DNA of 58,810 nt from Nitrospirota bacterium (GCA_023382175.1 JAMCQB010000153.1:1713-60522), one strand, 5' to 3'; shown: positions 15,319 through 52,434, counted from the first letter of the stretch. Translations and numbers: made by a program. Notes: generated by a model from the letters alone, not told the origin.

Positions 15319-15336
15319 CCCTGACGGAGTAAGGGA

Positions 15337-15378
15337 GTTTGGAGTAATGGGGCATTTGAATGCTCCATTACTCCAAAC
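15337..15378. repeat. Long intergenic hairpin (about 20-bp stem) between arrB and arrD
   Basis: GTTTGGAGTAATGGGGCATT-tg-AATGCTCCATTACTCCAAAC, with one G-T pair. Confidence 0.75.
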
Positions 15379-15429
15379 ACTTGCCCTCTGCTACTTTAGT
15401 ACTCAAATATCGTAACAAAAGGGGTAAGG

Positions 15430-16101
15430 GTGGATATCAAAGGATTTATTTCCCGGGAGAAAGCAAGGGGGGACTGTTACAGGCTTGTATCGGCATGTTT
15501 TTATCAGCCTGAGAAGGATGTTTTTCTTCAGGAGGATGTTTTTAGAAACCTTGCATTATTGTTGAAGCAGGTCTCTCAGGATGCTTCAGCCATTGTCAGC
15601 GAGATGGAAAAGTCATTTTCGAAATACAGCGAAGAAGAACTCACCGTGGATTATGCAAGACTCTTTGTGGGGCCAAATGAGCTGTTAGCTCCTCCATACG
15701 GTTCGGTGTATCTCGACGGGGACAGGAAGGTTATGGGCGATTCCACGATGGAAGTCATGAAGATGTACGAGGAGCAGGGGCTCGCTATGGACAGAGAATT
15801 CAGGAATTTGCCGGATCACATAACCGTAGAACTTGAATTCATGTATTACCTGATATTCAAAGAGATAGAGGCTCTTGAAAAGTCCGACATAGCCTCGGCT
15901 CTCAATTTTATAAACATTCAGGAAGTTTTCTTAGACAGGTTCCTTAAAAGGTGGATTCGGCCGTTTTGCGATAAGGTGAAGGAAGGCACGGATAGTGGAT
16001 TTTACAAGGCCCTCGCAGACTGTGCAGCCGCCTTTATCAGAGACGCAAGTCCCGGAGATGAACTCCCCGATGACCTGCAGAATAAAATGGCACGAGTGTA
16101 G
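15430..16101 (+). CDS. arrD: TorD/DmsD-family maturation chaperone
   Basis: DYARLFVGP, APPYGSVY, LPDHITVELEFM. Confidence 0.9.
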   Translation: MDIKGFISREKARGDCYRLVSACFYQPEKDVFLQEDVFRNLALLLKQVSQDASAIVSEMEKSFSKYSEEELTVDYARLFVGPNELLAPPYGSVYLDGDRKVMGDSTMEVMKMYEEQGLAMDREFRNLPDHITVELEFMYYLIFKEIEALEKSDIASALNFINIQEVFLDRFLKRWIRPFCDKVKEGTDSGFYKALADCAAAFIRDASPGDELPDDLQNKMARV

Positions 16102-16104
16102 ACA

Positions 16105-29292: not shown

Positions 29293-31056
29293 TTAGAACA
29301 GGCCTTTCACTTTCCCGGTTTCCACATCAACATCGACTCTGCGGTAGGCAGGGTCTGATGCTGTTCCCGGCATGAGCTTGATCGCTCCTGCAACCGGGAC
29401 AACGAAGCCTGCCCCTTTATAGGTCAGGATATCACGGACATGGAGTTTCCAGCCCTTCGGCACTCCCTTCAGGTTCGGGTTGTCGGTAAGGCTGAGGTGG
29501 GTCTTGACCATGCAGGTGCCGAGCTTTGCGATCTCGGGATCTTCCTCCATCCTCTTTGCCTTTGCAAGGGCTTCAGGAGAAAACTCTACGCCATCTGCGC
29601 CATACACCTCAGTGGCGATGAGTTCAATGCGCTTGCGGAGAGGCGTTGTAAGGTCATAGAGGAACTTGAAGTTACTGGGTTCGTTGCATGCATCCACAAC
29701 AGCGTCAGCCAGTTCCAGGGCGCCTTCACCCCCATACTGCCAGTGCTTCGACAGGGCAACCCTCGCCCCTGAAGTCTCTGCAATCCTCCTGACTGCTTTG
29801 ATCTCATTGTCGGTGTCGGTGTAGAAGGCGTTGATGCAGACAACGGGATTTATACCTGCCTTTTTCACAACATTTACCAGGTGAATGAGGTTCTCGCAAC
29901 CCTTTTCGACCCATCCGATATTTTCTCCCTTGTATTCCTCAGGTATGGGCTTACCGGGAACCGGAATGGGCGCGCCTCCATGACACTTCAGCGCCCTTAT
30001 GGTGGCAACAAGCACCGCAGCATTGGGCTTTAAGCCTGAGAATCTGCATTTCAGGTTCCAGAACTTCTCAAAACCGATATCGGCAGCAAACCCCGACTCT
30101 GTAACATTGTAATCGGCGAGTTTGAGGCCGACCCTGTCGGCTATGATGGATGACTGTCCGATAGCGATATTCGCAAAGGGTCCTGCATGGACAAGGACAG
30201 GCTGGCCTTCTATGGTCTGCATGAGGTTCGGATTGAGGGCCTCCACCATCCATGCGGTCATGGCGCCGGCTACGTCGAGATCTCCGGCCGTGACCGGCTT
30301 GCCGCTCTTGTCGTAAGCAACCACGATCTTCCCCATCCGTTCTCTCATATCTTTGAGGTCCTTTGCAACCGCAAGAATTGCCATTATTTCCGATGAAACG
30401 GCAATGGCAAAACCGGACCGCATCATGAAACCGTCGTCCTTACCGCCCAGGCCAAGGACAATGTCCCTGAGGGACTGTGCGCAGAAGTCCATTATCCATT
30501 TCATCTCCACGTTCCGCGGGTCGATGTTGAGCCTTTTGAGTTTACGCTTTGCAAGCTGCTCGTCCGTGTAGTTGAATTCGTGCTGCATGCGAGAGGTGAG
30601 GGCGACCATGGCAAGGTTGTGGGCGTTCATGATGGCGTTGATATCGCCGGTAAGTCCCAATGAAAACGGGGTAAGGGGAATGCACTGGGAAAGACCGCCT
30701 CCCGCTGCCGAGCCCTTGATGTTCATGGTGGGCCCGCCGGAAGGCTGTCTGATGGCGGCAATAACTTTCTTTCCCCTTTTCCCGAGACCCTGGGTGAGAC
30801 CCATGGTGGTCGTTGATTTTCCCTCGCCCAGAGGCGTCGGGGTAATGGCTGTTACATCGATATACTTGCCGTCCTGCCTGCCGCTGAGCCTTTTCAGGAT
30901 TTTGTTGAAGTCAAGCTTGGCTACATAATGTCCGTGGGGCAGGAGTTCTTCCTTTTCGAGCCCCAGTTCTTCACCGAGCTGATACACGGTTTTCATGCGC
31001 GTTTCGGCTTCTTCCGCAATTTCCCAGTCCGCATGTTTGGTTGGGTCAAGTGCCAT
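29293..31056 (-). CDS. fhs: Formate--tetrahydrofolate ligase
   Basis: [59 protein letters not shown]. Confidence 0.97.
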
Positions 31057-31160: not shown

Positions 31161-31616
31161 TTAATAACTGATCAGGGCGTTCAGGAACTTCTCGTTCATC
31201 TGTCTGAGGTTTTTGCTCAGAACAAGAATAAGCCTCTTCATTATCTTTGATGCGAGGAGGAGGTCTTCATTCTCCATTCTCTCAAAATCCTCTTTCGGTA
31301 TGCACAGGACCACTGTATCTTCAAGGGAGACTGCATTCGCTTCGTGGATCCTGTGTTCGATGATCGAAAGCTCACCAAAGAAACTGCCCTTTGTCAGGAC
31401 TGCCAGTGTCTGTTTCCAGCCGTCAGGGGTGATCTTTGAGATCTCGACCTTTCCTGAATGTATGAGGAAGATGCCCTTTGTGTCTTCCTTTTCCCTGAAG
31501 ACATGCTCTCCCTTCTTGAAGGGGATTTCCTTAACCACGCCGGCCATTTTCTTAAGTTCCGAAGCATCAAGGTCCTCGAGAAGGATCTGTTCCTTCAGCA
31601 TTTCCAGGCTTACCAT
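31161..31616 (-). CDS. Stand-alone cyclic-nucleotide-binding domain protein (no HTH)
   Basis: GEHVFREK...SGKVEI...GSFFGELS...HEANA; ATG at 31616 after GGAGGTG; about 151 aa. Confidence 0.88.
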   Translation of the reverse strand: MVSLEMLKEQILLEDLDASELKKMAGVVKEIPFKKGEHVFREKEDTKGIFLIHSGKVEISKITPDGWKQTLAVLTKGSFFGELSIIEHRIHEANAVSLEDTVVLCIPKEDFERMENEDLLLASKIMKRLILVLSKNLRQMNEKFLNALISY

Positions 31617-31733
31617 GTCACCTCCGGGAGATATCTCTAAGTCTCTACTATATTTTAAAGAACGCAAATTTTCAAGGGGATTCTGCAAATCCCGGTTCAG
31701 GAAAAACGAAAGAAACGGACCGGTTCATCGGCT

Positions 31734-34436
31734 CTATAAAGCCTTTATCTTTACCGCGCAGACCTTGAGTTCAGGGATCTTGCAGACAGGGTCCGTGGCA
31801 GTGTTCGTAAGGACGTTGGCAGCAGCCTCCTTGAAATGGAAGGGGATGAATACCATGCCCCGCAAAGGCCTTTCCGTGATCTTTGCAGCGAGATCGATGC
31901 TTCCCCTTCTGGAGGAGACGGTTATCTTCTGCCCGTCGGCAATGTTAAGTCTTCGGGCATCTTCAGGATGTATTTCAACGTACGGCTGGGAGGCGATCGC
32001 CTCAATGGCAGAGGTCTTTCTGGTCATGGTGCCCGTATGATACTGGAATAACTGTCTTCCCGTGGAGAGCACGAAGGGATATTCATCATCCGGAAGTTCT
32101 GCAGAAGGCCTGTAGCTCACTGCGGTAAATCTCCCTTTTCCCCTGGGAAACCCTCCCTTGAAAAGGTATGGTGTCCCGGGATGTTCAGGGGTGGGGCAGG
32201 GCCACTGTATTCCGTGTTTCTCTATGCGACTATAGGTGATTCCTGCCACCGCAGGCCAGAGCCGGCCGATTTCCTTCATGATGTCTTCCAAGGAGTTATA
32301 TTTCATCTCATATCCGAATCTCTTGCTCAACTCAGCAATTATCCAGGAGTCCTCCCGGGCGTCCCCGGGAGGGTTGACCGCTTTCCTCACGCGCTGAACC
32401 CGCCGGTCGGTATTCGTAAAAGTACCATCCTTTTCCGCAAAGCAGGCCGCGGGCAGCACCACATCAGCGAGCTCCGCGGTTTCCGTAAGGAAAATATCCT
32501 GTACCACAAGGAACTCGAGGTTCTTCAAGGCCTTAATAGTATGGTGCATGTCAGGGTCGCTGAGCACAGGGTTCTCTCCCATGATATACATCGCCTTGAG
32601 CGTGCCGCTGATCGCAGAGTCAGTCATTTCCGTTGCGGTGAGACCGATCTTGCCCGAGAGTGAGACACCCCATTCCTTTTCGAACTTCTCCTTTGCCTGG
32701 GGCATATCGACCTTCTGATATCCGGGATATACATTCGGCGCACAGCCCATATCGCTTGCCCCCTGGACATTGTTCTGCCCCCTCAGGGGATTTACACCGG
32801 TACTTTCTTTCCCCAGATTCCCGGTCATCAGGGCAAGGTTTGCTATGGAGAACACATTGTCCGTTCCGTGGGTATGCTGCGTCATTCCCATGGTGTAATA
32901 AATTCCGGCGCGCTCCGCCTTTCCGTAAAGCATGGCTGCCTTGATTATCTTCTCCTTCGGAACACCGGTGATCTTTTCCCCCACTTCCGGTGTGAACTCA
33001 GCCAGGGAGGCCCTGAATTCTTCGAACCCCTCGGTATGGTTTTTTATGAACTCGTTATCCTCAAGGCTTTCCTTCAGTATCACATGCATGATGGCATTGA
33101 GGAGAGCCACATCAGTCCCCGGCCTCTGCTGAAGCCAGAGGTCAGCGAACCTCACGAGATTTATCCTTCTCGGGTCTGCCACAATGAGTTTCGCCCCTTT
33201 TCTGAAGGCCTTTTTCATCTTTAATCCGATGATGGGGTGGGTCTCGGTGGTATTCGAGCCTATCACGAAAATCAGGTCATTGTTTACTATCTCGGGCATG
33301 GAGTTCGTCATGGCTCCCGAGCCGAAAACCGTGGCCAGACCGGCCACCGTTGCGCTGTGTCAATACCGGGCGCAATGGTCGATGTTGTTTGTGCCGATAA
33401 CAGCCCTGACGAATTTCTGGAAGAGGTAGTTTTCCTCGTTGGTTGCCCTGGCTGAGGACAGCCCTGCGAAGGAATCGGGTCCGTGCTTGTCTCTGATACT
33501 CTTCAGCCTCTCCGCAATGTAATCCAGTGCCTCGTCCCATGAGGCTTCCCTGAATACCTCATTACGCGTAACGCGTGACGCGTCACGGGTTTTTAGAGTT
33601 ATCCTGATAAGGGGTTTCTTTAACCTATCGTGGCTGCTGATGAAATTGTACCCGAATCTTCCTTTCACGCATAACCATCCCTCATTAATGGTGTCCGCCT
33701 TTGAATCCACCCTGATCACCTCATTTCCATGAACGTGGAGGGTGAGGTTGCATCCGCAACCGCAATATCCACAGGTGGTGTCAACTTCCCTTACCTCCTT
33801 CTGGCGTCCCTTCTGTTTCCAGGACTTGCCGGTGAGGGCACCTGTGGGACAAACGGCAATGCACTGGCCGCAGAATTCGCAGTCAAGGTCTTTCTCATAG
33901 GGGGGACAGATCTTGGATTTAAATCCCCGGTAGGCAAAATCAATGGCTCCAACACCTTCGACCTCGTCGCAGACCTTTACGCACCTGCCGCAGAGGATGC
34001 ATTTTTCCATATCCCTTTCAATAAAGGGATTTCCGTCTCGTTTAGTATAGATTCTTCTTTCGCCCTCAAACCTGTTTTCCCTGATGCCGTAGAAATACGC
34101 AAGTTCCTGGAGGGTGCAGTCACCTGCCCTTTCGCATACCATACAGTCGTTGGGGTGGTCTGAAAGAATCAGCTCAAGAACTGTCTTCCTCAAGCTTTCG
34201 AGGTTGGGGCTGGTTGTGGTCACTTCCATTCCCTCACTCACGGGCGTGGTGCAGGAAGTTACCGGTCTCGGAATTCCTTTAATCTCTATGAGACAGAGTC
34301 TGCAACCCCCGAAGGGGGTAAGTTTGGGATGGTGGCAGAGGGTGGGAATGGAAATATGCAGTCTTTTTGCAGCGTCAAGAACCGTTATACCCTCAGGAAC
34401 GTTTACTGTCTTTCCGTCTATCGTGACCTTTGGCAT
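31734..34436 (-). CDS. fdhF: Selenocysteine-containing formate dehydrogenase alpha subunit (cytoplasmic, NuoG-like N-terminus)
   Basis: ORFs 33360-34469 and 31734-33347 are in the same frame, separated by TGA at 33362-33360, giving [27 protein letters not shown] is present, there is no Tat signal, and a SECIS follows the TGA. Confidence 0.93.
33327..33351 (-). other. Bacterial SECIS element
   Basis: UGA-CACAGCGC-AAC-G-GUGGCC-GGUCU-GGCCAC-G-GUU: stem-loop with an apical GGUCU, comparable in position to the E. coli fdhF SECIS. Confidence 0.85.
33561..33590. repeat. Heptamer repeat inserted in frame in the fdh gene ([10 protein letters not shown])
   Basis: a-ttacgcg-taacgcg-tgacgcg-tcacggg. 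Confidence 0.75.
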
Positions 34437-34438
34437 AG

Positions 34439-36235
34439 CTACTCCCTGCTTACCGATGCAAATTTGCATACATCAAAGCACGCACCGCACTTTATGCACT
34501 TTTCGGGATCTATTCTATGGGGCTTTTTCTTGTCGCCTGCGATCGCTCCCGCAGGACATGCCCGCCTGCAGGCACCGCAGCCTGTGCAGACCTCTTCAAT
34601 GATGCTGTAGGTTAAAAGGTCTTTACATACCTTTGCAGGACATTTCTTCTCTCTTATATGGGCTTCGTATTCTCCCCGGAAGTATTTCAGGGTGCTGAGA
34701 ATGGGATTGGGAGCTGTCTGTCCCAAGCCGCAGAGGGACGCTGCTTTGACATCGGCACAGAGTGTTTCGAGAAGTTCAATGTCCCCTTCTTTGCCGAGGC
34801 CTCTTGTGATCCGGTCGAGTATTTCGAGCAGCCTCTTTGTACCGATCCTGCAGGGTACACATTTCCCGCAGGATTCGGCCTGGGTGAATTCGAGGAAGAA
34901 TTTTGCGATATTGACCATGCAGTCAGTTTCGTCGAGGACGACCATTCCCCCGGAGCCTATGATGGATCCGACGCGGCCCAGTGATTCAAAATCTACGGGC
35001 GTATCAAGAAGTTCAGCGGGAATGCAGCCGCCTGAGGGTCCTCCGGTCTGGACGGCTTTGAACTGTTTGTTGCCGATAATACCGCCGCCGATATCGTAAA
35101 TGATCTCGCCGAGTCTAATGCCCATGGGAACTTCAATAAGTCCTGTGTTCTTCACCTTGCCGGTGAGAGCAAAGACCTTTGTCCCCTTGCTCTTCCCGGT
35201 GCCTATTGCGGAGTACCATGCAGCGCCGTTCCGGATAATGTAGGGGATGTTCGAGAGCGTCTCTACATTGTTGATGACCGTGGGCTTTCCCCAGAGACCT
35301 TTGTGAACAGGGAAGGGGGGCTTCGCTCTCGGCATGCCTCTCTCTCCTTCAATGGAGGCGATAAGGGCGGTCTCCTCACCGCACACAAAGGCTCCGGCCC
35401 CCAGCTTTATCCGCACATCGAAATGAAAGCCTGATCCGAAGAGATTGTTCCCGAGGTATCCCAGTTCATGAGCCTGTGCTATTGCAAGTTTCAGCCTGTC
35501 TACGGCTGCGGGATATTCCGCCCTGATGTAGACATATCCGAGACTGGCCCCGATGGCATACGCAGCGATCATCAGGCCTTCAACGACCGAGTGGGGATTA
35601 CCCTCGATGATGGATCTGTCCATAAATGCTCCCGGGTCGCCTTCATCGGCGTTGCAGACGATATACCTTACGTCTCCCGGCGCTTTCCGGCAGGCTTCCC
35701 ACTTCACTCCCGTGGGGAAGCCCGCTCCTCCCCTGCCGCGGATGGCCGATGCCTTTATCTCGTTGATCACATCCTCCGGCGTCATTGCAGAGACGATCTT
35801 CTTTATTCCGCTGTATCCGCCTACATTGATGTAGGCCTGGATGTCTTCAGGGTCTATGGTACCGCAATCCTTGAGGAGGATCTTCAGCTGCTTCGCATGG
35901 AAGGCGTAGTAGGAAGCGTCGATAAGCCACTCCTTTACAGGTTCCCCCTTTATAAGGTGTTCCTCGACAATCCTCTTTGCTATGTCGGGTTTTATCCCCT
36001 GATAGGTCACGCTCGTATCGCCGTCAACCACGTCAACGAGAACGTCCCTGGCGCAGAAGCCACGGCACCCGACCTTCTGGTAATGGCAGGTGAAGTCAAG
36101 TTCGATATCAACACAGAAATCGGTAATCGCCTTCTTGAAGGCTTCGATCACCTCCTTGCCCCCCGCGGCAAGACCGCCCGTGCCTATGCAGACCCTGACG
36201 ACTACCTTTTTCTTGTTCTCTTCACTTTGTTCCAC
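34439..36235 (-). CDS. NuoF/HydB-like flavin subunit (NAD-type, bifurcating signature)
   Basis: N-terminal thioredoxin-like 2Fe-2S region, GRGGAGFP, NADEGDPGAFMDR, CGEETAL, GGPSGG, ESCGKC.PCR, and two C-terminal 4Fe-4S motifs. Confidence 0.92.
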   Translation of the reverse strand: MEQSEENKKKVVVRVCIGTGGLAAGGKEVIEAFKKAITDFCVDIELDFTCHYQKVGCRGFCARDVLVDVVDGDTSVTYQGIKPDIAKRIVEEHLIKGEPVKEWLIDASYYAFHAKQLKILLKDCGTIDPEDIQAYINVGGYSGIKKIVSAMTPEDVINEIKASAIRGRGGAGFPTGVKWEACRKAPGDVRYIVCNADEGDPGAFMDRSIIEGNPHSVVEGLMIAAYAIGASLGYVYIRAEYPAAVDRLKLAIAQAHELGYLGNNLFGSGFHFDVRIKLGAGAFVCGEETALIASIEGERGMPRAKPPFPVHKGLWGKPTVINNVETLSNIPYIIRNGAAWYSAIGTGKSKGTKVFALTGKVKNTGLIEVPMGIRLGEIIYDIGGGIIGNKQFKAVQTGGPSGGCIPAELLDTPVDFESLGRVGSIIGSGGMVVLDETDCMVNIAKFFLEFTQAESCGKCVPCRIGTKRLLEILDRITRGLGKEGDIELLETLCADVKAASLCGLGQTAPNPILSTLKYFRGEYEAHIREKKCPAKVCKDLLTYSIIEEVCTGCGACRRACPAGAIAGDKKKPHRIDPEKCIKCGACFDVCKFASVSRE

Positions 36236-36698
36236 TGGATTCCTTTTTTTTCAATTCCTTGATGAGCTTTGAAGTGCTGTCCGCGGACATTTCGGCGTAG
36301 GCGCTGTTATTGACCAGGACCACGGGCGCGATACTGCAGGCCCCGACGCAACGTACGATCTCGAAGGTGAATTTCCCGTCTTCGGTTGTCTCCCCATCAG
36401 CGGCAAGGCCGAGGTCCCTTTGGATTCGTTCAGCGATCTTGCTCCCGCCCTTGACATGGCAGGCCGTCCCGCAACAGACGGAAACGATGTTCTTTCCCCT
36501 CGGTTTGAGATGGAATTGCGAGTAGAAAGTGACGACCCCGTAAAAACGGCTTGGCGGAATCTCAAGTTTTTCCGAAAAGTAATTGACCGCCTCTTCCGGG
36601 ATATATCCGAGGGCGTCCTGCGTCTCCTGAAGCAGGAATATGACATTGCCTTCCTTTTCCCTGTACTTTGTTATGATGCCGTCGAGAATGTCATTCAT
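36222..36698 (-). CDS. NuoE/HydC-like 2Fe-2S subunit
   Basis: VCCGTACHVKG...CVGAC..AP. Confidence 0.93.
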   Translation of the reverse strand: MNDILDGIITKYREKEGNVIFLLQETQDALGYIPEEAVNYFSEKLEIPPSRFYGVVTFYSQFHLKPRGKNIVSVCCGTACHVKGGSKIAERIQRDLGLAADGETTEDGKFTFEIVRCVGACSIAPVVLVNNSAYAEMSADSTSKLIKELKKKESSGTK

Positions 36699-36720
36699 AA
36701 GTTTGCCTTATGGGCGCATT

Positions 36721-36749
36721 ATTATAGTTAATTATCTGAATTTTTTCAA
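36721..36749 (-). promoter_or_regulatory. Sigma70 promoter for the nuoE2-nuoF2-fdhF unit
   Basis: Minus strand TTGAAA-17 nt-TATAAT, about 20 nt upstream of the ATG. Confidence 0.65.
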
Positions 36750-36787
36750 ACTCTTTTTTCAAACCCTTTTTTTAATACCGACCCGGG

Positions 36788-36817
36788 AAAAAAGCGCCCC
36801 GCCCGAAAAGGCGGGGC
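36788..36817 (-). terminator. Rho-independent terminator after the NuoG-like gene
   Basis: Minus strand GCCCCGCC-ttttcg-GGCGGGGC-gcTTTTTT. Confidence 0.8.
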
Positions 36818-36844
36818 AAGTGGAGGTCAGCCCGGTACAGAAAT

Positions 36845-38860
36845 CTATGCAAGCGCCTTTTCCGACTCTGTAAGCCAGAGGAGCCGTGAGCCATCAATAA
36901 CATGCATGTTCATTGACTGCATTATCTCATTCGTCGCTCCCTCAAGTTCTTCCCGGCGCGTAAAGGGATTGAAGGCAACCACCGGTTTCATTTTTGCGAG
37001 TTTCTTTGTTTCACTCTCTTTAGCCTCCTTCAGAGGCGTTCCCATTGCTTCTGAAAGGGCGACGAATATCTCCCGGTGGGATCTTGCCTCACCGGCGGGC
37101 TCGACAGCCTTGGCCAGCTGTTTCAGCCTTCCGAGATAGTCCACAATGGTGCCGTCCGCTTCGAGATATGCTGCTGCAGGCAGGACCACATCGGCCTGCT
37201 TTGCAATCTCTGTGAGATGAGAGGTCTGCACAATGAGAAAATCTGTGGAAGGTCTGCGACTCAGCGGAACTTCCCCTACTGCATAAAGAAGCTTCATGCC
37301 CTCCGTGGTCATCTCTCCGTAGGTCTTCCCTTCTTTCTTGATCCCCATGAGGATTATCCCTTTTGCATTGCTCTCCACAGGCATCGATACGGCAGCGCCT
37401 TTCAGGAGAGTCACGTTTGCGGCGGCCGGATAGAGGGCAGGGGACGACAGTATCACAGGGTTCTTGGCGCCAACAAAGAGCCCGGCCGCTGCCTCAACCA
37501 TCTCCGTAACCGGGGCGTCCGAGACTGCCGAAGCGAGTTCGCCGTCCGCCTTGATGCCTTTGTCCATGATTGCCTTCACCAGCGCCCTCAATGTCTCGGG
37601 CTCATCGCCCACAAGGTTAACCGCTGCGACTGATGAGATATTCGGCTCTGCAGAATTGATCGTGATCAGCTTTGCCCCTGCATTGACCCTTCTTCTGATG
37701 GTCGCATCGAGGGCAGGCAGCGCCCTTTTCCACTGGTTCGGATTGAGCCCCACAAGGACAAAGAGGTCTGCGGATTCGAGGTCAGCGCCCCCTGAGAGCA
37801 GCGTAGATTCATCGCCGTACAGGCTTGCGGTACTGTCAACGTTCTTCGTCTTTACCGCATCAGAGGCAAGCCTCTTCAGGGTCAGGGCGTCTTCATTAAG
37901 GATACCCGCCGGAGTGATGAATCCGGCATTCTCTCCCGCCTTCTTCATTTCCTTCGCAACGATTCCGAGGGCGTCTTCCCATGTTGTCTCCTGCAATTGA
38001 CCGTTTACGCGCTTCATGGGGACCCTGACCCGCGTGTCTGCCTCGATGCAGTCAAAGCCGAAGCGGCCATAAGCGCAGATGTATTTTTCAGGTGAACCGT
38101 CAGCGGCGCCCGCGTTTACTTTCACAAGCCTGCTGTCCTTTGTGCTCACGCTTATGTCGCAAGCGTTGCCGCAGAGGAGACAGACGGACTTTACCTTGTC
38201 ATAATCCCATTCCCTTCCCCTGCGCCACCTGTCGGCCTCGAGGAGGGCGTTCACCGGGCAGACGTCAACGCAACTGCCGCAGAATGTGCAGCCCGATTCA
38301 TGAAGGGGTTTGTCGTTTGCGGTAGTGACCTTCGAGCCCACGCCACGCCCCATGAATTCAAGGACATTCGTCCCCTGGTTTTTGCAGACCCTCACGCACC
38401 TTCCGCAGAGGACACAGTAGTCAGGATCCCGCTTGATGAACGGGTTCGCCTCGTCAATCGAGAAACCGAACTTCTTTCTCGTGAAATTCGACTCCTTGAT
38501 CTCGAAATCATAGGCATAATTCTGGAGGTTGCAGACACCGGCCTTCGTGCAGGTCATGCAGTCCAGGGGGTGCATCGAGAGGATGAGGTCTATCACGAAC
38601 TTCCTCGTCTCGAGGACCTTCTCCGTCTTTGTCCTGACCGCCATCCCTTCCTTCACCTTTGTTGTGCAGGCTATCATGGGGGCCTTCAGTCCCTCGACCT
38701 CGACCATGCACAACCGGCACGCGCCGATGCCTTTTAATCCCTTGAGGTAGCAGAGGTTCGGTATATGGATACCGCCAAGCTCTGCCGCATCGATAAGGTT
38801 CATCCCCTCGGGGGCATGGATCTCCTTGCCGTCTATCGTAAGCTTTATTGTATTTGCCAT
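36845..38860 (-). CDS. NuoG/HylA/SfrA-like Fe-S protein with a degenerate molybdopterin fold (no Mo ligand)
   Basis: 2Fe-2S (IPNLC...GACRLC...C), HPLDC..C.....C, two 4Fe-4S motifs, CLLCGNAC...C. NVDSTASLYG replaces the NIDHCAR(L/Y)(C/U)H ligand loop. Confidence 0.88.
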   Translation of the reverse strand: MANTIKLTIDGKEIHAPEGMNLIDAAELGGIHIPNLCYLKGLKGIGACRLCMVEVEGLKAPMIACTTKVKEGMAVRTKTEKVLETRKFVIDLILSMHPLDCMTCTKAGVCNLQNYAYDFEIKESNFTRKKFGFSIDEANPFIKRDPDYCVLCGRCVRVCKNQGTNVLEFMGRGVGSKVTTANDKPLHESGCTFCGSCVDVCPVNALLEADRWRRGREWDYDKVKSVCLLCGNACDISVSTKDSRLVKVNAGAADGSPEKYICAYGRFGFDCIEADTRVRVPMKRVNGQLQETTWEDALGIVAKEMKKAGENAGFITPAGILNEDALTLKRLASDAVKTKNVDSTASLYGDESTLLSGGADLESADLFVLVGLNPNQWKRALPALDATIRRRVNAGAKLITINSAEPNISSVAAVNLVGDEPETLRALVKAIMDKGIKADGELASAVSDAPVTEMVEAAAGLFVGAKNPVILSSPALYPAAANVTLLKGAAVSMPVESNAKGIILMGIKKEGKTYGEMTTEGMKLLYAVGEVPLSRRPSTDFLIVQTSHLTEIAKQADVVLPAAAYLEADGTIVDYLGRLKQLAKAVEPAGEARSHREIFVALSEAMGTPLKEAKESETKKLAKMKPVVAFNPFTRREELEGATNEIMQSMNMHVIDGSRLLWLTESEKALA

Positions 38861-38879
38861 TCAGACCTCCTCTTAATAT

Positions 38880-38947
38880 GTTACACGTGACACGTAACGG
38901 CGTTATGAGTTTTTAGATTTTGGACGTCACGCATTACGCGTTACGAG
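38880..38947. repeat. Intergenic heptamer-repeat element (TTACGCG family)
   Basis: ttacacg-tgacacg-taacggcg-ttatgag ... tcacgca-ttacgcg-ttacgag. Confidence 0.7.
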
Positions 38948-38953
38948 TTTTAT

Positions 38954-39556
38954 TTATACGCCTACCGCCTTTTTCTTCTTTGCCTCAACTATTACGATCG
39001 CTTCCGTGGGACAGACCTTCCTGCATTCGTCGCATTTGACGCACTTCTTCTGCCGTATCTCGAAGGGCGGATAGCCGCTATGGAAGGGCTTTTTCTTCTG
39101 CCCGAAGATCGCATGGTACTTGCAGGCATCGAGGCAGATCCCGCAGTTGTCGCATTTGTCGGGGATTACCCGGTACTCGATGAAAGCAGGGCACTTCATC
39201 GATGGGCAGATGCCACCGATATGCTTGTCATATTCATCCGTGCTCATCCATTGGAGGACAAATTTCGCGGTATCTTTCCCCTTCTTGCACATCGAGGATT
39301 CGAGCATGTCCCCCGCGATCCTCTTCAGCGCCCACAGGTCTGCTTCCCTGCCCCTGCCGTTTACGATGGTCTCGAGCCTTATCCTCGCTTCGTAGCTTCC
39401 CATGGCGCAGGGGAAACACCTTCCGCACATGGGACCTGCAAGAAACTCCGTCATGTAGTAGAAGGCTTTCTGCACGGGGCAGCCCTTTCCCTCGGCAAGC
39501 GTTCTTATCTCTTCAACCTTTAGCTCTCTCTTCTCGGTTGCACTTTTTTCAGTCAT
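38954..39556 (-). CDS. NuoF Fe-S-binding-region protein with two 4Fe-4S clusters (no flavin domain)
   Basis: CPV...MCGRCFPC...SMCKKG...H..G.CP...C, CDNCGIC...C, CVKCDEC...CP. Confidence 0.85.
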   Translation of the reverse strand: MTEKSATEKRELKVEEIRTLAEGKGCPVQKAFYYMTEFLAGPMCGRCFPCAMGSYEARIRLETIVNGRGREADLWALKRIAGDMLESSMCKKGKDTAKFVLQWMSTDEYDKHIGGICPSMKCPAFIEYRVIPDKCDNCGICLDACKYHAIFGQKKKPFHSGYPPFEIRQKKCVKCDECRKVCPTEAIVIVEAKKKKAVGV

Positions 39557-39565
39557 GCCTTACCT

Positions 39566-42029
39566 CTAATAGATATCCTCTGCCATATAGATAACCTCGG
39601 GCAGCAGGTAGGAAACCAGGTCCCTGTAAGAGACCATGCCGATGATCTTCTCGTCTTCCATGACGGGGAGATGTCTGATCTTCCTCTCCGACATCACCGT
39701 GATCGCCACACTGATGTCCGTCGAGGAGTCAAGGGTTATAGGTTTGGGGGTCATGATGGTTGCCATCGTCTCTTCCTTGAAGTTGATGTTCTTCGCAAAA
39801 CAGTGCATGATATCCCTTTCAGTGAAGATTCCGGCCAGCTTCTCGTCGTCGTCAAGGACCAGGATGGAACCGACATTCTGGCCGTCCATGACGGTCACCG
39901 CATCGGCGACAATACAGGTTGTCTTGCAGGTGACCATCTTTGACGGTTTCGCTTTTAACAGATCCTTTAATGTCATTCTCGCTCTCCTTTCGAGTATCTC
40001 GATTTTTTCAGGAGGCACTCTGAACTGCTCCTCGAGTTTCACGATACTCTCTTTTCTTATTTTGACCGCACCGATGGGACACGCGTGGAAGCATGCCTTG
40101 CATTTTGTGCAGGAATCCTGATCGATAAAGAAGCGTTCCCTCGTCTCTTTCACCGCGCCATAGGCGCAGGCCTGTTTGCAGAGCCCGCAGCTGAAACACT
40201 CGGCAGAATTGATCACAAAGACGCCCGTGCCTCCGCAGATGTTCGCCCTGCAGTACTTTCCATAGATGTGCTCTTCGTATTCATCCCTGAAATACTTGAT
40301 CGTGCTGAGGACCGGGTTTGGGGCTGACTGGCCGAGACCGCAGAGAGACCCCTTCTGGATTTGTTTTCCCATCTCGATAAGCCTCGCGATATCGCCGTGT
40401 TTGCCTCTGCCGCTTGTGATATCTTCAAGTATCCGGAGCATCTGGTAAGTGCCGATCCTGCACGGGGGGCACTTCCCGCAGGATTCCGACTGGGTAAAGG
40501 AGAGGAAGTATTTTGCCACGTCCACCATGCAGGTGTCCTCGTCCATGACGACCATGCCCCCGGAGCCCATCATTGAGCCGACCTTCCAGAGGGAATCGAA
40601 GTCTGCCGGCAGATCGAGAAGGCTTGCCGGCATGCAGCCCCCCGAAGGTCCACCGGTCTGGACTGCCTTTATTTTCTTGTCATTCAGCACTCCGCCACCG
40701 ATGTCGAAGATGATCTCCCTGAGCGGCATACCCATCGGGACTTCCACAAGTCCGGTGTTCTTGACCTTGCCGGTCAGAGCAAAGACCTTTGTGCCTGGAG
40801 AGGTCTCGGTCCCGATACTTCTGAACCAGTCCGCTCCTTTTTCTATTATCGGAGGGACACAGGCATAAGTCTCTATGTTGTTCAGGTTGCTGGGATATCC
40901 CCACACGCCTCCGCCGGGCTCGGAGAGTCTTGGCGGGCGGGGCCTCGGGAATCCCCTTTCGCCCTCGATCGAAGCAACAAGGGCAGTGGACTCGCCGCAG
41001 ACGAATGCACCCGCACCCTCTCTCACGTCAAGGTGAAAACTGAAATCCGTTCCGAGGATGTTCCTGCCGAGAAGCCCCAGATCTTCGGCCTGACCTATGG
41101 CATGTTTCAGGTTTCTTACCGCAAGGGGATATTCATGCCTCACATAGACGAATCCGAAGGACGCCCCGATGGCATAGGCACAGAGGAGCATCCCTTCGAA
41201 GAGACTGTGGGGATCGCCTTCCATGATCGACCTGTCCATGAAGGCGCCGGGGTCGCCTTCGTCGCCGTTGGCAATGACGAATTTTATGTTCCCGGGTGCG
41301 CTCTTTGTATGCATCCATTTCTTTCCGGCGGGGAACCCTGCGCCGCCTCTTCCCCTGAGGTTTGCCTTATCGACCTCGTGCAGCACATCATCAGGAGTCA
41401 TGGAAGACAGTGCCTTTTCCAGAGCGGCATATCCCCCAACAGCGATATAGTGATGGATGTTGGTAGGGTCGATCTTATCATTATTCCTCAATGCAATCCT
41501 CACCTGCTTTTTGTAAAAGGGCAGATTGAGCATCTCCGGGATAGGATCGCTCAGGATGTCTTCCCGGTAAAGGGCTTCCCTGAACGGTGTGCCTGCGACA
41601 AAGGTAGAGCTTATGAGCCCTGATGCATGCTCGGGTTTCACTCGCTGATAGAAAATCTCCTGAGGCTCTGTCTTCCCGGTAAAGGGCTTCCCTGAACGGT
41701 GTGCCTGCGACAAAGGTAGAGCTTATGAGCCCTGATGCATGCTCGGGTTTCACTCGCTGATAGAAAATCTCCTGAGGCTCTGTCTTCATGATCGGACCCT
41801 TCTGGCACATGCCCTGGCACCCTGTCTTGATGATCTCGATTCCCAGTCCCTTTTTCCTGGCCTCGTCTTCAAGGGCGTGAATAACCTTGGACGAACCTGA
41901 AGCAGTGCATGCGGTGCCGCAGCAGACCCTTGCCCTTTCCCTGTCAGGCTGAAAGACCTCCGATGCAAGCCGTTCTCTCAACCTCCGTAAATCCTCTATG
42001 TTCTGTAACCTCTCCATCCGGAACTCCAT
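39566..42029 (-). pseudogene. NuoF/HydB-like flavin subunit with a C-terminal CBS pair, frameshifted by a 112-bp tandem duplication
   Basis: ORF 41481-42029 (N-terminal VCCGTAC...TGCQGMC) plus ORF 39566-41713 (GRGGAGFP, GDEGDPGAFM, CGESTAL, GGPSGG, 4Fe-4S, CBS motifs GIFTERD and IRHLPV). Deleting one repeat copy gives one 783-aa ORF. Confidence 0.85.
41557..41787. repeat. Exact 112-bp tandem duplication bounded by TGTCTTC microhomology
   Basis: 41557-41668 equals 41669-41780; TGTCTTC occurs at 41557, 41669 and 41781. Confidence 0.95.
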
Positions 42030-42030
42030 T

Positions 42031-42513
42031 CTATTCTTTCACCATTGTGACCATCTTGTTGATCTTCTCCTGATCGATCTCGCCCACAACCTCCTCATTC
42101 ACGGTGATTACCGGTGCGAGACCGCAGCAGCCGACGCACCCCACGGTTTCGAGGGTCATCGATCCATCAGGAGTCGTTTCCCCTTCCTTGACCCCGAATT
42201 CCTCTTCGAGATTCTGGAGCACCTTTGAAGCGCCTCTTACGTGACAGGCAGTTCCCACACAGACACAGACGATGTTTTTCCCTCTCGGCTTAAAATAGAA
42301 ATGCCTGTAGAACGAGGCGGTGCTGTATACATCAGAAAGAGGAATATCGAGATTCCTCGAAAGTTCCCTGAGTTCGTCTTCGGGAAGATAGTTATGTTCC
42401 TTCTGTATCTTCTGAAAGGCGTGGATGAGAAGTCCCCTCTTCTTTTGATCTTCGCTCATAACCTCACCGACGCCTCTGTAGAATTCCTCGACGTTCATCC
42501 TATCCACGGGCAT
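42031..42513 (-). CDS. NuoE/HydC-like 2Fe-2S subunit (second copy)
   Basis: VCVGTACHVRG...VGCVGCCGLAP; RBS GGAGG. Confidence 0.92.
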   Translation of the reverse strand: MPVDRMNVEEFYRGVGEVMSEDQKKRGLLIHAFQKIQKEHNYLPEDELRELSRNLDIPLSDVYSTASFYRHFYFKPRGKNIVCVCVGTACHVRGASKVLQNLEEEFGVKEGETTPDGSMTLETVGCVGCCGLAPVITVNEEVVGEIDQEKINKMVTMVKE

Positions 42514-43366: not shown

Positions 43367-45298
43367 TTATGCCCGCGAGTCCTTCAGTTCAAAGATTTTC
43401 ACTTCCCTTTCCTTGCCTTTCACTTTCGCGGATGCAAGTTCCTTTACCGCCAGATGCCCAAACAAGCCATTCTTTATGAGGGGTTCTATATATGCAAAAG
43501 TATTTTCTGTGATAAGGATCCTCGTACCGTATTGCCTTGTTAATTTCTCTACCCTGGCTGCAAGATTCACATGGTCTCCTATTACCGTATAATCCATCTT
43601 CTTCCCTGGTGCTCCGATATTCCCTATCAGAACTTCACCGCTATTGATCCCTATGCCGACATCAAGGACATCAGTACCTCTCTGCCTCCATATCTCCTGC
43701 AACTTTGTCAGTTTCTCTGACATGTCAAGGGCGCATCGTAAAGCGAGCTCGGCGTGATTTGGTTGCTCTATGGGTGCGCTCCAGAGCGCCATGATCTCAT
43801 CTCCCACAAATTTATCAAGGGTCCCGTCCCATTTGAATATGATATCTGTCATCTCGTGAAAGTATTCATTAAGGAGGGAGACGACTTCCTCTGGCTGTCT
43901 TTTTTCGGAAAGGGAAGTAAATTCGATGACGTCCGAGAAGAGCACGGTCACCGTCCTCCTTACGCCGGAAAGAGTGGCCTTTTCCGGATTTTCGACGAGC
44001 TCTTTCACGATCTTCGGGGATACATAGCTCGAAAACATCTGGCGTATCTCCTTTGCCTTCTTTTCTTCATGGACGAACCTTATGACCGTCAAAGTGACAA
44101 AAATGGTAAACATGTTCGTGCCCGGATAGAGGAGATTTGCCCAGAGATTATGGTATACGAGCAGATAGCAGCAGACAAAGATATAGAGGAGTATGAAACC
44201 GGTGGCAAGGAAGGCACTGGAAATAGCCTTTAATCTTGGAAGAGTTAATCCAAGAATAATCCCGGTGAAGATAATAGCGATCAACTCAATAACACCGGGG
44301 CTCTTTTTTATAAAATTGTTTAAGAGAATGTTATTTACGACATTCGCATTCTTCTCCACTCCCGGCATATTGCCGGAAAAGGGCGTCACCTTCTGGTCGT
44401 AGGTGGCAAGGGCAGATGTCCCGACGAGGACTATCTTGTCTTTTAAGACATCAGAGGGGACTCTGTCTTTGAGCACATCCGAGGCAGAGATATAGGGAAA
44501 ACTTCGCTCTTTTCCCCTGTAATTTATTACGGCCCTACCGTACAGATCGGTGGAGATAAACGCACTGCCAAGACCTATCCCGGAGCCGCCGTAGAGGATC
44601 ATGTCTTTCATAGGAATGCCCAGGGCGACTCTCGCGATCTGGAGAGCAAACTGCGGATAACAGTCTTCACCGTAAGAAAGAGAAAGAATCTCCCATCGCT
44701 GAGATCCATCCATATCAGGCAGGGTATAGACATGACCGAGCGCTGCGACTGTGGAGATTTCGGGCAAGGAGGGCTTAACCTTTTCCGCCTTAACCGCAAA
44801 GTCCTTCCACTTAATTCCTTTTTGGCTTCTTACCTCCATGAAGGCAGAGTCCCAGAGAAAATCAGGGACTTCCTTTGGAGAACCGGCGACTGTCCTGCCC
44901 TGAGGGACCTCAAAGGCTGTGGCCAGTACTACGTTGTCCGCCTTTTTTATCGCTTCTGCAAGTTTTTCGTCTTTCTCAGGACTCTCCCTTTCGGTGAACA
45001 TAACATCGATGCCTATAACCTTAGGTCCTGCAGCCGAGATCTTATTCACAAGCGCTGCCATAACATCCCTCCCCCACGGCCATCTGCCTATTTCCCCGAT
45101 GCTTTTGTCGTCGATGGCAACGACGATAATATCCTTTGCCGGAGGCTGCTCCTTTATAAGGTTCCTCAGCCGGAGCCTGAGATCATAGGTTTTGCTTTCC
45201 AGATGTTCACGGATTATCAGGGGATCTTTAAGCTGCAGAACAACAAAAAACAGTGTGGAAAGGAAGGGGATAAGATAAAGCCAGAGCCTCTTCTTCAT
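43367..45298 (-). CDS. CHASE2-domain membrane adenylate cyclase (class III)
   Basis: CHASE2 motifs IDDKSI..IGRWPW.R and PGVE; three TMs; catalytic VLFSDV, DKFVGD (Lys suggests ATP) and YTVIGD.VNLAAR.E. Confidence 0.93.
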   Translation of the reverse strand: MKKRLWLYLIPFLSTLFFVVLQLKDPLIIREHLESKTYDLRLRLRNLIKEQPPAKDIIVVAIDDKSIGEIGRWPWGRDVMAALVNKISAAGPKVIGIDVMFTERESPEKDEKLAEAIKKADNVVLATAFEVPQGRTVAGSPKEVPDFLWDSAFMEVRSQKGIKWKDFAVKAEKVKPSLPEISTVAALGHVYTLPDMDGSQRWEILSLSYGEDCYPQFALQIARVALGIPMKDMILYGGSGIGLGSAFISTDLYGRAVINYRGKERSFPYISASDVLKDRVPSDVLKDKIVLVGTSALATYDQKVTPFSGNMPGVEKNANVVNNILLNNFIKKSPGVIELIAIIFTGIILGLTLPRLKAISSAFLATGFILLYIFVCCYLLVYHNLWANLLYPGTNMFTIFVTLTVIRFVHEEKKAKEIRQMFSSYVSPKIVKELVENPEKATLSGVRRTVTVLFSDVIEFTSLSEKRQPEEVVSLLNEYFHEMTDIIFKWDGTLDKFVGDEIMALWSAPIEQPNHAELALRCALDMSEKLTKLQEIWRQRGTDVLDVGIGINSGEVLIGNIGAPGKKMDYTVIGDHVNLAARVEKLTRQYGTRILITENTFAYIEPLIKNGLFGHLAVKELASAKVKGKEREVKIFELKDSRA

Positions 45299-45429: not shown

Positions 45430-46332
45430 TTAATCTACGGGGGCCCCCCCAGGCCCATTATAAGGTGGTGGAGGCGGAGGATATATGTCCGGCGGAGGCG
45501 GTGGAGGTGGTGGAGGCGAAGGTGGTGGAGGCGAAGGCGGCGGTGGTGGAGGCGAAGGCGGTGGTGGTGGAGGTGGCGGTGGAGGAGGCGGTGGTGTTAC
45601 TGACTTTGGGGCTATGGGCGCTTGGTCACCGCGAGGCACGAAAACATCTTCAGCAGTACCCTCCAATTTGGCAGGACCAGGTCCCCAAATCCGTATTTCT
45701 TCGAAGTCGATATCTCTCAGGAGTTCCTCAATTTCCGCGTCAGAGGCCGGCGATGGCTGCGGAAGGGGCTCTCTCTCACATACCTCAATCTTGAACCGCG
45801 GTTTAAGCACCCGTAGTCCTTTGATATTGGTGTCAGGGCTGGTGACGAACACTTCCTTTTCAGTCTCGGTAGTTATCAGTTTGCTGCATATCTTTCCATC
45901 GATTTTTCTCACATGATAGAGAATGATAGTCCCCCTTGCTGCGGCCACCGCAGTGGGTGTCTGGACCTCAAATTGGGTTTTCCCGACAACCGACTTCATT
46001 TTGCCGTCGATGAGATTGAAGATGGACTTTCCGCCTTTGTCCTTGGCGTAAAGGAATTCTTTTATTACTACCTTCGATTTTTCTCCCATACTCAGGACAC
46101 TGTCGTCAGCAAAGAGCAGCTTTGCCCTGGAAGCCTCAAGGGTCGATACGGAATCCTTCAGGAGTATCCCGTCCTTTACCTTGGCATCTATAATCCTGTT
46201 ATCACGTTCGATGACTGTTTTACCTCGAAGGGCAACTACCGTGCCTACCTCATCCTTTGCCATGACAATGTCTGACAATCCCACAATGGAGAGGGTAATG
46301 ACAAGAAGTGTTATCAGTTTCAAGACTTTCAT
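45430..46332 (-). CDS. Secreted FecR-domain protein with a poly-proline C-terminal tail
   Basis: Signal peptide; FecR-like D...T...SRAKL.F.D.SVL.MGE.S, FEVQTPTAVAAARGT; Pro-rich tail. Confidence 0.85.
   Translation of the reverse strand: MKVLKLITLLVITLSIVGLSDIVMAKDEVGTVVALRGKTVIERDNRIIDAKVKDGILLKDSVSTLEASRAKLLFADDSVLSMGEKSKVVIKEFLYAKDKGGKSIFNLIDGKMKSVVGKTQFEVQTPTAVAAARGTIILYHVRKIDGKICSKLITTETEKEVFVTSPDTNIKGLRVLKPRFKIEVCEREPLPQPSPASDAEIEELLRDIDFEEIRIWGPGPAKLEGTAEDVFVPRGDQAPIAPKSVTPPPPPPPPPPPPPSPPPPPPSPPPPSPPPPPPPPPDIYPPPPPPYNGPGGAPVD
45464..45595 (-). repeat. Low-complexity poly-Pro coding tract
   Basis: GGTGGTGGAGGC(GAA) units on the + strand encode P-runs punctuated by Ser on the minus strand. 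Confidence 0.9.
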
Positions 46333-51440: not shown

Positions 51441-51531
51441 GGAGAGATGACCGAGTGGCCGAAGGTGCACGACTGGAAATCGTGTGTGCGCTAATCCCGC
51501 ACCGTGGGTTCGACTCCCACTCTCTCCGCCA
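51441..51531 (+). tRNA. tRNA-Ser(GGA)
   Basis: GGAGAGA/TCTCTCC acceptor stem, anticodon arm CACGA-CTGGAAA-TCGTG, long variable arm, GGTTCGACTCC T-arm, encoded CCA. Confidence 0.97.
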
Positions 51532-52319: not shown

Positions 52320-52434
52320 CTGCAGTCAGGGAGTGGCCCTGCGCAACAGGATGGTGTGAACCCCGCCAGGTCCGGAAGGAAGCAGCGGTAAGCATTTATT
52401 TTGTGTGCCGCAGCAAGTTGTTCCCTGGCTGCAG
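52320..52434 (+). ncRNA. ffs: Signal recognition particle RNA (4.5S)
   Basis: Conserved core CCAGGTCCGGAAGGAAGCAGC, closing stem CTGCAGTCAGGGA/TCCCTGGCTGCAG; upstream of dnaX. Confidence 0.95.

Follow-up and report, generated by a model that had tools for sequence, protein, structure and literature searches.

A predicted NADP-type Bfu module beside a formate dehydrogenase unit in a Nitrospirota bacterium, and the linkage of its relatives to CODH/ACS genes

Gene content and nucleotide sites of the two units

The DNA stretch analyzed here, 58,810 nucleotides from a Nitrospirota bacterium (GCA_023382175.1, JAMCQB010000153.1:1713-60522) and referred to as the window, carries two co-directional gene sets on the minus strand at positions 34439-42513 and in the flanks of this region. 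Unit 2 is arranged in the transcription order HydC2-HydB2-FeS200-BfuA2 and is followed by a terminator, a promoter and unit 1 (HydC1-HydB1-FdhA), which encodes a selenocysteine (Sec) formate dehydrogenase (FDH). We favour the reading, with a probability of roughly 0.55, that unit 2 is a displaced NADP-type Bfu module associated with CO dehydrogenase/acetyl-CoA synthase (CODH/ACS), which in this lineage has moved beside the Sec-FDH Bfu unit. The features of the two units are:

42031..42513, minus strand: HydC2 (BfuC), first gene of unit 2; NuoE-like protein of 160 aa with a thioredoxin-fold [2Fe-2S] domain (PF01257, E 2.1e-45); its orthologue stands ahead of HydB in related loci
39566..42029, minus strand: HydB2 (BfuB), deposited as two open reading frames (ORFs), 41481-42029 (182 aa) and 39566-41713 (715 aa)
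41557..41780: perfect 112-nt tandem duplication (41557-41668 = 41669-41780) that shifts the HydB2 frame
HydB2 motifs, minus strand: DPGAFM 41237-41254; CGESTAL 40979-40999; PRPRPP 40931-40948; GTKVF 40781-40795; GGPSG 40640-40654
40988..40990, minus strand: Ser codon TCC within CGESTAL, aligned with Glu183 of E. coli K-12 NuoF
40928..40930, minus strand: Arg codon of PPR(LSE), in the protein PRPRPPRLSE; aligned with Arg340 of T. kivui HydB, Phe in NAD-type relatives
39566..39960 (limits approximate), minus strand: C-terminal CBS pair of HydB2 (PF00571, E 1.7e-23, two stretches, the best at residues 652-704 of the 715-aa ORF)
38954..39556, minus strand: FeS200, 200 aa, with NADH_4Fe-4S and Fer4 as its only Pfam matches
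36845..38860, minus strand: BfuA2, NuoG-like, 671 aa, assigned from Pfam and alignments
36818-36795, minus strand: intrinsic-terminator-like hairpin past BfuA2, 10-bp stem with 8 G-C pairs, followed by a T run
36749-36721, minus strand: sigma-70-like promoter before HydC1, TTGAAA-17-TATAAT, 11 of 12 consensus matches
36222..36698, minus strand: HydC1 (BfuC of the FDH unit; PF01257, E 3.5e-48)
34439..36235, minus strand: HydB1 (BfuB of the FDH unit), NAD-type with CGEETAL and PPF, from Pfam, motifs and NuoF alignment
HydB1 motifs, minus strand: CGEETAL 35363-35383; PRAKPP 35315-35332
31734..34469, minus strand: FdhA, Sec protein of 911 aa with an N-terminal NuoG-like Fe-S domain

The two sets had been described as separate HydBC-type units in an earlier note made from the sequence alone (here the original prediction). 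The motifs and coordinates that it gave for both NuoF-like subunits, including the Ser codon, were all found to be correct, and the extra Fe-S domains that it claimed are matched in Pfam. A terminator-like and a promoter-like signal do lie between the units. In the signal scan one promoter-like match was found against 0.8 expected, and two terminator-like matches against 0.7 expected. Upstream of HydC2 the promoter scan returned just two weak matches of 9/12 each.

BfuB is defined by an FMN-binding Nuo51 domain, an SLBB domain, a NuoF-type 4Fe-4S and a ferredoxin-type 4Fe-4S domain (Schut et al., 2022; text of PMC9304861). HydB1 and HydB2 share the corresponding Complex1_51K, SLBB, NADH_4Fe-4S and Fer4 domains (PF01512, PF10531, PF10589 and Fer4 families). 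The family also requires a co-encoded BfuC of the NuoE type (thioredoxin-like, 2Fe-2S) and a BfuA bearing, at a minimum, one 2Fe-2S and one 4Fe-4S domain of the ferredoxin type; these were recognized from PF01257 in HydC1 and HydC2 and from PF13510/PF00111 together with Fer4 families in BfuA2. By domain definition both units are members of the Bfu family. The in-frame TGA at 33360-33362 of FdhA, in the motif HCARYUHS, was taken as selenocysteine, and judged by the N-terminal NuoG-like Fe-S domain of FdhA unit 1 is a Type 1 Fdh-Bfu.

The deposited HydB2 is broken into its two ORFs by the 112-nt duplication. With one repeat copy taken out it becomes a single open frame of 783 aa, containing in order an N-terminal thioredoxin-like 2Fe-2S domain, the flavin mononucleotide (FMN)/NAD(P)H domain, SLBB, an N3-type 4Fe-4S domain, a 2x[4Fe-4S] domain and two CBS domains. 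The duplication was checked in Logan contigs from four sequencing runs (X1, X2, X5, and X6) belonging to four studies. In contigs from X1 and X2, perhaps the source samples, position 41556 is joined to 41669 with 0 mismatches. The same junction was found in X5, with 16 mismatches over two pieces, while X6 has no cover over 41308-41692. Two repeat copies were seen in none of the four runs. Intact orthologues, 779-785 aa long and 89-90% identical, occur in the related loci L013 (780 aa) and L017 (779 aa). Since contigs of three runs hold a single copy, we read the duplication as probably an assembly artefact of the deposited genome. The CBS pair is present in HydB2 orthologues of 775-796 aa and absent from those of 625-634 aa, and suggests adenylate-dependent control.

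Aligned with NuoF of E. coli K-12, the sequences do not vary at C180, G181, E182, and T184. Glu occupies position 183 in E. coli NuoF, HydB1, and the two short NuoF proteins of the same genome, and Ser occupies it in HydB2 and a paralogue described below; the equivalence to E183 in the original prediction is therefore upheld. Replacement of this Glu reportedly enables E. coli complex I to use NADPH.

As reference for HydB2 we used solved chains, compared by score and alignment. When the nucleotide-binding stretch of the five best solved relatives was aligned, the combination CGESTAL and PPR of HydB2 was found in 8a6t_B only; 7t2r_B, 7p5h_B, and 9bov_B have CGEETAL and PPF, and 9n5u_B has CGEETAL and PPY, these four being NAD-linked or of unassigned cofactor. 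Structure 8a6t is the HydABC of T. kivui (data statement of PMC10482914), which works with NADP+, in contrast to the NAD+-using enzyme of A. woodii (Katsyv et al., 2023; text of PMC10021017). The nucleotide contacts named for T. kivui HydB are Phe205 and Arg340, the latter touching NADP+ (Fig. 4 legend, PMC10021017), and counting along the alignment of solved chains identifies the Arg in PPR as Arg340. What tells the two types apart is the residue after PRPRPP/PRAKPP, Arg in HydB2 and Phe in HydB1. PRPRPP itself, proposed earlier as a discriminating motif, is non-diagnostic, as 7t2r_B carries it together with the Glu/Phe combination (EE/F).

The two positions covary in all 84 HydB/NuoF rows examined: Ser or Ala together with Arg (E[S/A]+R) in 71, EE+F in 12, and EE+H in 1. 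Among the HydB2-like rows E[S/A]+R is kept in 71 of 77, and the pair has switched at least three times on the HydB tree. The covariation of both positions and the repeated switches lend support to a coupled cofactor switch. HydB2 is predicted to be specific for NADP(H), and the earlier idea of an NAD-type and an NADP-type pair is strengthened, HydB2 sharing both Ser and Arg with the NADP+-using T. kivui HydB. Because 7t2r_B, of the EE/F type, outscores 8a6t_B, the Ser/Arg signature (ES/R) of HydB2 and T. kivui HydB is probably convergent.

FeS200 corresponds to a free-standing C-terminal third of HydB (N3-type 4Fe-4S plus 2x[4Fe-4S]) without the flavin domain. Its best match in the PDB is chain 7p5h_B, residues 466-626 (E 4.3e-25), and 14 Cys and a single His do not vary among 42 sequences. 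BfuA2 has conserved ligand motifs (Cys/His) for five Fe-S clusters, namely a 2Fe-2S, a His-ligated 4Fe-4S, two ferredoxin-type 4Fe-4S and a MopB-type 4Fe-4S cluster, and its C-terminal part is a cofactor-less molybdopterin-oxidoreductase-like domain. Pfam assigns to it 2Fe-2S, NuoG-type 4Fe-4S and Molybdopterin domains, and neither Molydop_binding (PF01568) nor Fer4_20 or Pyr_redox_2. In the alignment with the Sec-FdhA of the window the segment around the Sec/Cys ligand is deleted. The earlier description of the two proteins as a Mo-less NuoG-like protein and a flavin-less NuoF fragment agrees with these results. BfuA2 as an active FDH was considered and rejected on account of the deleted Sec segment and the missing PF01568. 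Residues 5-107 and 99-609 of BfuA2 align with residues 4-107 and 564-1106 of chain 9bov_A, and residues 108-563 of that chain are skipped.

Linkage of the module to CODH/ACS genes

A search with BfuA2 in contigs of one genome per species identified 264 relatives, of which the best 80 loci were analyzed. Nearly all of these are titled Nitrospirota or Thermodesulfovibrionales, and their ORFs were annotated against the window proteins. HydC, HydB, and FeS200 lie ahead of BfuA in 60 of the 61 loci with sufficient upstream DNA. CooS was found in 49 of the 80 loci; it is absent in 9, where at least 2.2 kb is seen upstream of HydC, and 22 loci are too short to judge. Unit 2 is not an orphan, because CooS precedes the module in 49 of the 58 related loci that are informative. 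AcsB lies alongside in 44 of the 47 loci with a CooS ORF above 300 aa, the remaining 3 being cut too close to judge; in all 44 loci that can be judged, CooS is the CODH gene of an acsB-cooS operon. The common gene order is cdhD-acsB-cooS-hydC-hydB-fes-bfuA, with CdhD and AcsB confirmed by Pfam in locus L015. NuoE/F/G-like COGs are listed among the neighbours of Wood-Ljungdahl-type CODH genes (Inoue et al., 2019; text of PMC6344411).

An NfnB-like gene accompanies the module in 16 of the 80 loci, in some as an NfnAB-like pair beside the cluster. Such pairs lie at L015:11144-13549, L073:2757-5071, and L103:9068-11430, beside the CODH/ACS-Bfu cluster or an unlinked module.

Another Nitrospirota class is represented by locus L104, which carries HydC-HydB(ES/R)-FeS-BfuA-CooS at 6211-13555. 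No match to AcsB was found in this 19-kb locus. BfuA2-type genes of 46-51% identity occur in 45 of 64 sampled genomes of the same family. In a phylum sample of 301 genomes, BfuA2-type genes (E <=1e-150) were found in 107 and CooS (E <=1e-100) in 141. When the lists were compared by hand all 107 fell within the 141, and a BfuA2-type gene was found in none of the 160 sampled genomes without CooS. These genomes are related and not independent, so the nesting is a pattern rather than a test.

Two tandem HydB genes behind one HydC were observed in L024, L046, L075, and L072, and also in L063, L079, L044, L056, L068, and L051. In the first four of these the first HydB is EE/F (NAD-like) and the second ES/R (NADP-like) within one CooS operon, which would be compatible with a dual-cofactor complex.

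On the HydB tree the window HydB2 falls within a clade of 21 rows (support 100) that mixes CooS-linked and unlinked copies, and linkage to CooS has changed at least five times over 65 informative rows. Five genomes with an unlinked module were inspected. Each has one BfuA2-type gene and carries CooS elsewhere. In four regions fetched from these genomes CooS is the last gene of a cdhD-acsB-cooS operon and is not followed by Bfu genes. The module adjoins an FDH unit in two of the five, and has neither FDH nor CooS beside it in three.

The genome of the window is 86.8% complete. No CooS was found on the window's contig, the genome's three CooS matches being on C81, C159, and C140. The original prediction that unit 2 has no catalytic subunit accordingly holds only locally. 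CooS on C159, truncated by the contig end, is 91% identical to the CooS of a cdhD-acsB-cooS operon from one of the unlinked genomes. A second set is divergent and interrupted by a contig break. Its order is LarB/LarC-like genes, FeS, BfuA, CooS, HydC, and HydB; FeS-BfuA is found at the end of C4 (L096:5829-7939) and the BfuA C-terminus-CooS-HydC-HydB on C81 (L011:1-5356). Its HydB is a paralogue of 733 aa with CGESTAL and an extra Cys-rich Fe-S tail in place of the CBS domains. An adjacent CooS, the feature of the predicted Codh-Bfu class, is thus present in the paralogous set and absent from unit 2.

The presence of a second full set on C4/C81 and the frameshifting duplication in the deposited sequence would both agree with unit 2 being a decaying copy, in which the duplication is real, HydB2 is a pseudogene, and the CooS-linked paralogue does the work. 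We consider this very improbable. The single-copy, in-frame form was recovered in three of the four runs (without mismatch in X1 and X2, with few in X5) and the two-copy form in none; the rest of HydB2 is free of stop codons, the other three genes of unit 2 are intact, and the module is the only copy in the five related genomes.

The same genome encodes a nuoCD-E-F-G-H operon on C86 with its own NuoE, NuoF (442 aa), and NuoG, and an FDH with a short NuoF on C59. Unit 2 as the N-module of complex I was rejected on the basis of the former operon. An NfnB-like gene is also present in this genome (58% identity).

Proposed working and competing explanations

Unit 2 most likely encodes a soluble BfuABC-type flavin/iron-sulfur complex. 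By homology with the solved HydABC, NiFe-HydABCSL, and StnABC, HydB2 and HydC2 would form its bifurcating core of FMN and Fe-S clusters, the pyridine-nucleotide site at the FMN of HydB2 being adapted to NADP(H). The second substrate would be ferredoxin, served at the C-terminal clusters of HydB. A third electron port would run through the Fe-S chain of BfuA2, probably together with FeS200 as a plausible connector, to CooS of CODH/ACS, which the linkage data make the most likely third redox site. The conversion of CO2 and CO at CODH could then be coupled to NADP+/NADPH and ferredoxin jointly, by bifurcation or confurcation. This would lower the ferredoxin demand in the carbonyl branch and, in the oxidative direction, yield NADPH and reduced ferredoxin. 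In the window lineage the four genes would have been separated from the acs-cooS operon and now lie upstream of Fhs and of an independent Sec-FDH Bfu unit of the NAD type. The partner CODH would be encoded elsewhere, on C159, and the second, CooS-linked copy on C4/C81. What was observed is the gene content, motifs, synteny, and phyletic pattern; the NADP specificity, the physical association of the module with CODH, and bifurcation are inferred.

Several observations weigh against this reading. The window has no CooS, and a strong terminator/promoter pair is the sole boundary between unit 2 and the FDH unit. The module stands beside an FDH unit in four genomes (the window's, L013, L030, and L034) from two subclades, which could mean that it is functionally linked to FDH. 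With the L015 AcsB as query, no AcsB was found in the window's genome, a result which at 86.8% completeness does not show absence. The NADP assignment depends on two residues and one characterised relative, 8a6t_B, which by score is not the closest to HydB2 (674 bits against 687 bits for 7t2r_B). A perfect tandem repeat could in principle be collapsed in contigs that are built from short words. A Codh-Bfu has yet to be purified, and gene adjacency does not equal binding. Finally, the CO/CO2 couple (E0' -520 mV; Table 1, PMC9304861) is more negative than ferredoxin, and bifurcation is not obviously required. The proposers of Codh-Bfu raise the same energetic problem in their text, and the argument from enzyme-bound or very dilute CO is also theirs (PMC9304861). 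The scheme is energetically sensible only if enzyme-bound or very dilute CO lifts the effective potential.

The adjacency of unit 2 to the HydC1-HydB1-FdhA unit in these four genomes bears on an explanation close to the original prediction, which had proposed an undescribed module that docks on FDH or pairs with the NAD module. Here, the NADP-type set would work with the adjoining NAD-type Fdh-Bfu, either as an FDH using both NAD and NADP or as a formate-independent NADH/NADPH/ferredoxin transhydrogenase, and the inactive FdhF-like domain of BfuA2 might make the contact with FdhA. A homologous inactive FdhF-like domain mediates oligomerisation of StnABC (text of PMC10482914), and BfuA2 aligns with StnC-type chains of that subunit on both flanks of the GltD insert. 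The tandem EE/F and ES/R HydB genes in L024, L046, L075, and L072 imply that mixed NAD/NADP Bfu sets exist, which gives the transhydrogenase-like idea an indirect echo in CooS operons without making it a leading one. We nevertheless find this explanation distinctly unlikely. The units are transcribed separately by terminator and promoter, and the FDH unit is complete without unit 2, as FdhA has its own NuoG-like domain together with HydB1 and HydC1. FDH-adjacent copies, although they exist, number 2 of the 58 informative loci, to which the window and the short L034 locus are added, against 49 adjacent to CooS; in three of the five unlinked genomes the module lies on a contig without any FdhA-like gene; and the NfnB-like gene of the window's genome means that a transhydrogenase is probably already present. 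Neither orphan status nor FDH partnership as the leading view therefore survived the neighbourhood survey.

The loci in which the module is unlinked from CooS also relate to a different explanation, a stand-alone NADPH:ferredoxin oxidoreductase with no fixed third partner that keeps the pools of NADP(H) and of ferredoxin in balance for the Wood-Ljungdahl pathway. In such an enzyme the CBS pair would adjust activity to the adenylate status, while the roles of scaffold and of ferredoxin-docking wires would fall to BfuA2 and FeS200. The module is unchanged in the nine informative loci where it is unlinked, with the at least five linkage changes noted above, and BfuA2 lacks a catalytic cofactor site. 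FeS200 copies the C-terminal part of HydB, which is the ferredoxin-reducing site in T. kivui HydABC (Fig. 2 legend, PMC10021017), and the NfnAB-like genes nearby in 16 of 80 loci point to balancing of pyridine nucleotides and ferredoxin. Against this stands the confinement of BfuA2-type genes to CooS-bearing genomes (107 of 107, and 0 of the 160 sampled genomes without CooS). In addition, a two-substrate reaction from NADPH to ferredoxin is uphill without a third exergonic leg, and the conserved five-cluster chain of BfuA2 suggests that electrons go somewhere. We regard a stand-alone enzyme as rather unlikely.

Returning to the displaced CODH/ACS-associated module, a wider picture can be drawn, which we offer tentatively and hold to be possible rather than probable. 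In much of the Nitrospirota, BfuC, a BfuB of the NADP type, a spare subunit matching the HydB tail, and a BfuA without cofactor would make up a bifurcating module, dependent on NADP(H) and ferredoxin, to which CODH/ACS would be hard-wired, with NADPH and ferredoxin jointly driving the conversion of CO2 to enzyme-bound CO. In the window lineage the module would have been freed from the acs operon and come to lie beside an NAD-type FDH-Bfu, and a single organism would possess both NAD- and NADP-specific bifurcating cores, which may exchange partners.

Electron supply to CODH/ACS in Wood-Ljungdahl organisms other than classical acetogens is poorly understood. An acsB-cooS operon joined to a bifurcating core with the family's only structurally documented NADP signature would provide a concrete and testable answer, and would widen the predicted Codh-Bfu class by a phylum and a cofactor. 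The natural two-residue switch between Glu/Phe and Ser/Arg, with at least three changes in one gene family, may be useful for cofactor engineering of NuoF/HydB. The apparent orphan and the apparent pseudogene of the window both have ordinary explanations.

Surrounding genes and comparison with known systems

Downstream of unit 1 lie genes for a cyclic-nucleotide-binding protein, Fhs, and a radical-SAM/SPASM protein, and upstream of unit 2 those for a YbaK-like protein and a CHASE2 adenylate cyclase:

31161..31688, minus strand: cyclic-nucleotide-binding protein between FdhA and Fhs (PF00027, E 7.7e-24)
29293..31056, minus strand: Fhs, formate-tetrahydrofolate ligase of the Wood-Ljungdahl methyl branch (PF01268, E 1.3e-229)

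The CHASE2 adenylate/guanylate cyclase gene at 43367-45298 stands just upstream of unit 2, and the cyclic-nucleotide-binding protein lies within the FDH-Fhs cluster; in L030 and L034 the latter is located between BfuA and HydC1. Taken together with the CBS pair of HydB2, these genes hint at a nucleotide-based control of the redox genes.

Further away, genes for a Nap-type nitrate reductase (a molybdoenzyme, NapB, and two Fe-S proteins) cluster at positions 1-4263, and a second molybdopterin oxidoreductase is encoded at 11899-17118 along with an Fe-S subunit and a chaperone of the NarJ kind. Two-component and sigma-54 regulators are encoded between them. A FecR-domain protein at 45430-46332 has a C-terminal part that is nearly all Pro with few Ser. 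The Rfam scan of the whole window returned a tRNA gene (51441-51528) and a small signal recognition particle RNA gene (52330-52427) only, and no riboswitch close to either unit.

The closest described class is Codh-Bfu, with which unit 2 shares BfuABC genes that cluster, in its relatives, with a Ni-CODH gene and extra Fe-S subunits. According to the text of Schut et al. (2022; PMC9304861) this is a predicted class of four sequences, from Firmicutes only, never characterised and with NAD assumed. The CODH genes are there placed between BfuB and BfuA, in contrast to the order acsB-cooS-bfuC-bfuB-fes-bfuA in the relatives of unit 2. The BfuA of Codh-Bfu is given as Type 2, without A3 and A5 (PMC9304861), and BfuA2 has five cluster motifs, counted without the numbering of that paper, a number that would not suit a reduced BfuA. 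Unit 2 differs further in its occurrence in Nitrospirota, its NADP-type site, the inactive FdhF-like domain, FeS200, and, in the window, a CooS that is not adjacent. In the literature searched the term Codh-Bfu was found only in PMC9304861, and no description of the Nitrospirota module or operon or of the NADP signature was found; the supplements of PMC9304861, which lay outside the search, may list Nitrospirae. The original prediction had named a match to a characterised complex with its catalytic partner encoded elsewhere as an outcome that would speak against it: a likely partner was found in CooS, while the complex belongs to a predicted, uncharacterised class.

NiFe-HydABCSL (7t2r), the prototype of a Bfu with separate catalytic proteins, is the top-scoring solved relative of HydB2 (687 bits). 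Its BfuA is described as having no catalytic site and as receiving electrons from separate catalytic subunits (Schut et al., 2022; text of PMC9304861). It differs from unit 2 in its NiFe hydrogenase partner and in the EE/F motifs of its HydB.

StnABC/Nfn-Bfu (8oh5, 9n5u, and 9bov) has a similar HydBC-like core and a large subunit with a NuoG-like Fe-S part and an inactive FdhF-like domain. The GltD-like FAD/NADPH domain of approximately 450 residues is absent from BfuA2, and unit 2 as a Stn-type transhydrogenase was rejected for this reason. Stn binds NAD on the HydB-like subunit and NADPH on the GltD domain, whereas the sole nucleotide site of unit 2 would be the NADP-type FMN site.

NuoEFG of complex I belongs to the same three protein families, and NuoG also has a cofactor-less MopB-like domain. 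HydB2 differs by its extra N- and C-terminal Fe-S domains from the short NuoF of the nuo operon.

T. kivui HydABC (8a6t), the NADP+-specific electron-bifurcating [FeFe]-hydrogenase of Thermoanaerobacter kivui, shares with unit 2 a HydB with N-terminal 2Fe-2S and C-terminal 2x[4Fe-4S] domains, a HydC partner, the identical CGESTAL, and the Arg of PPR. The match scores 674 bits and spans residues 15-550. T. kivui HydABC differs in its H-cluster subunit, in place of which unit 2 has BfuA2 with the cofactor-less MopB-like domain; unit 2 in turn adds FeS200, the CBS pair of HydB2, and a two-residue insert after PPRLSE.

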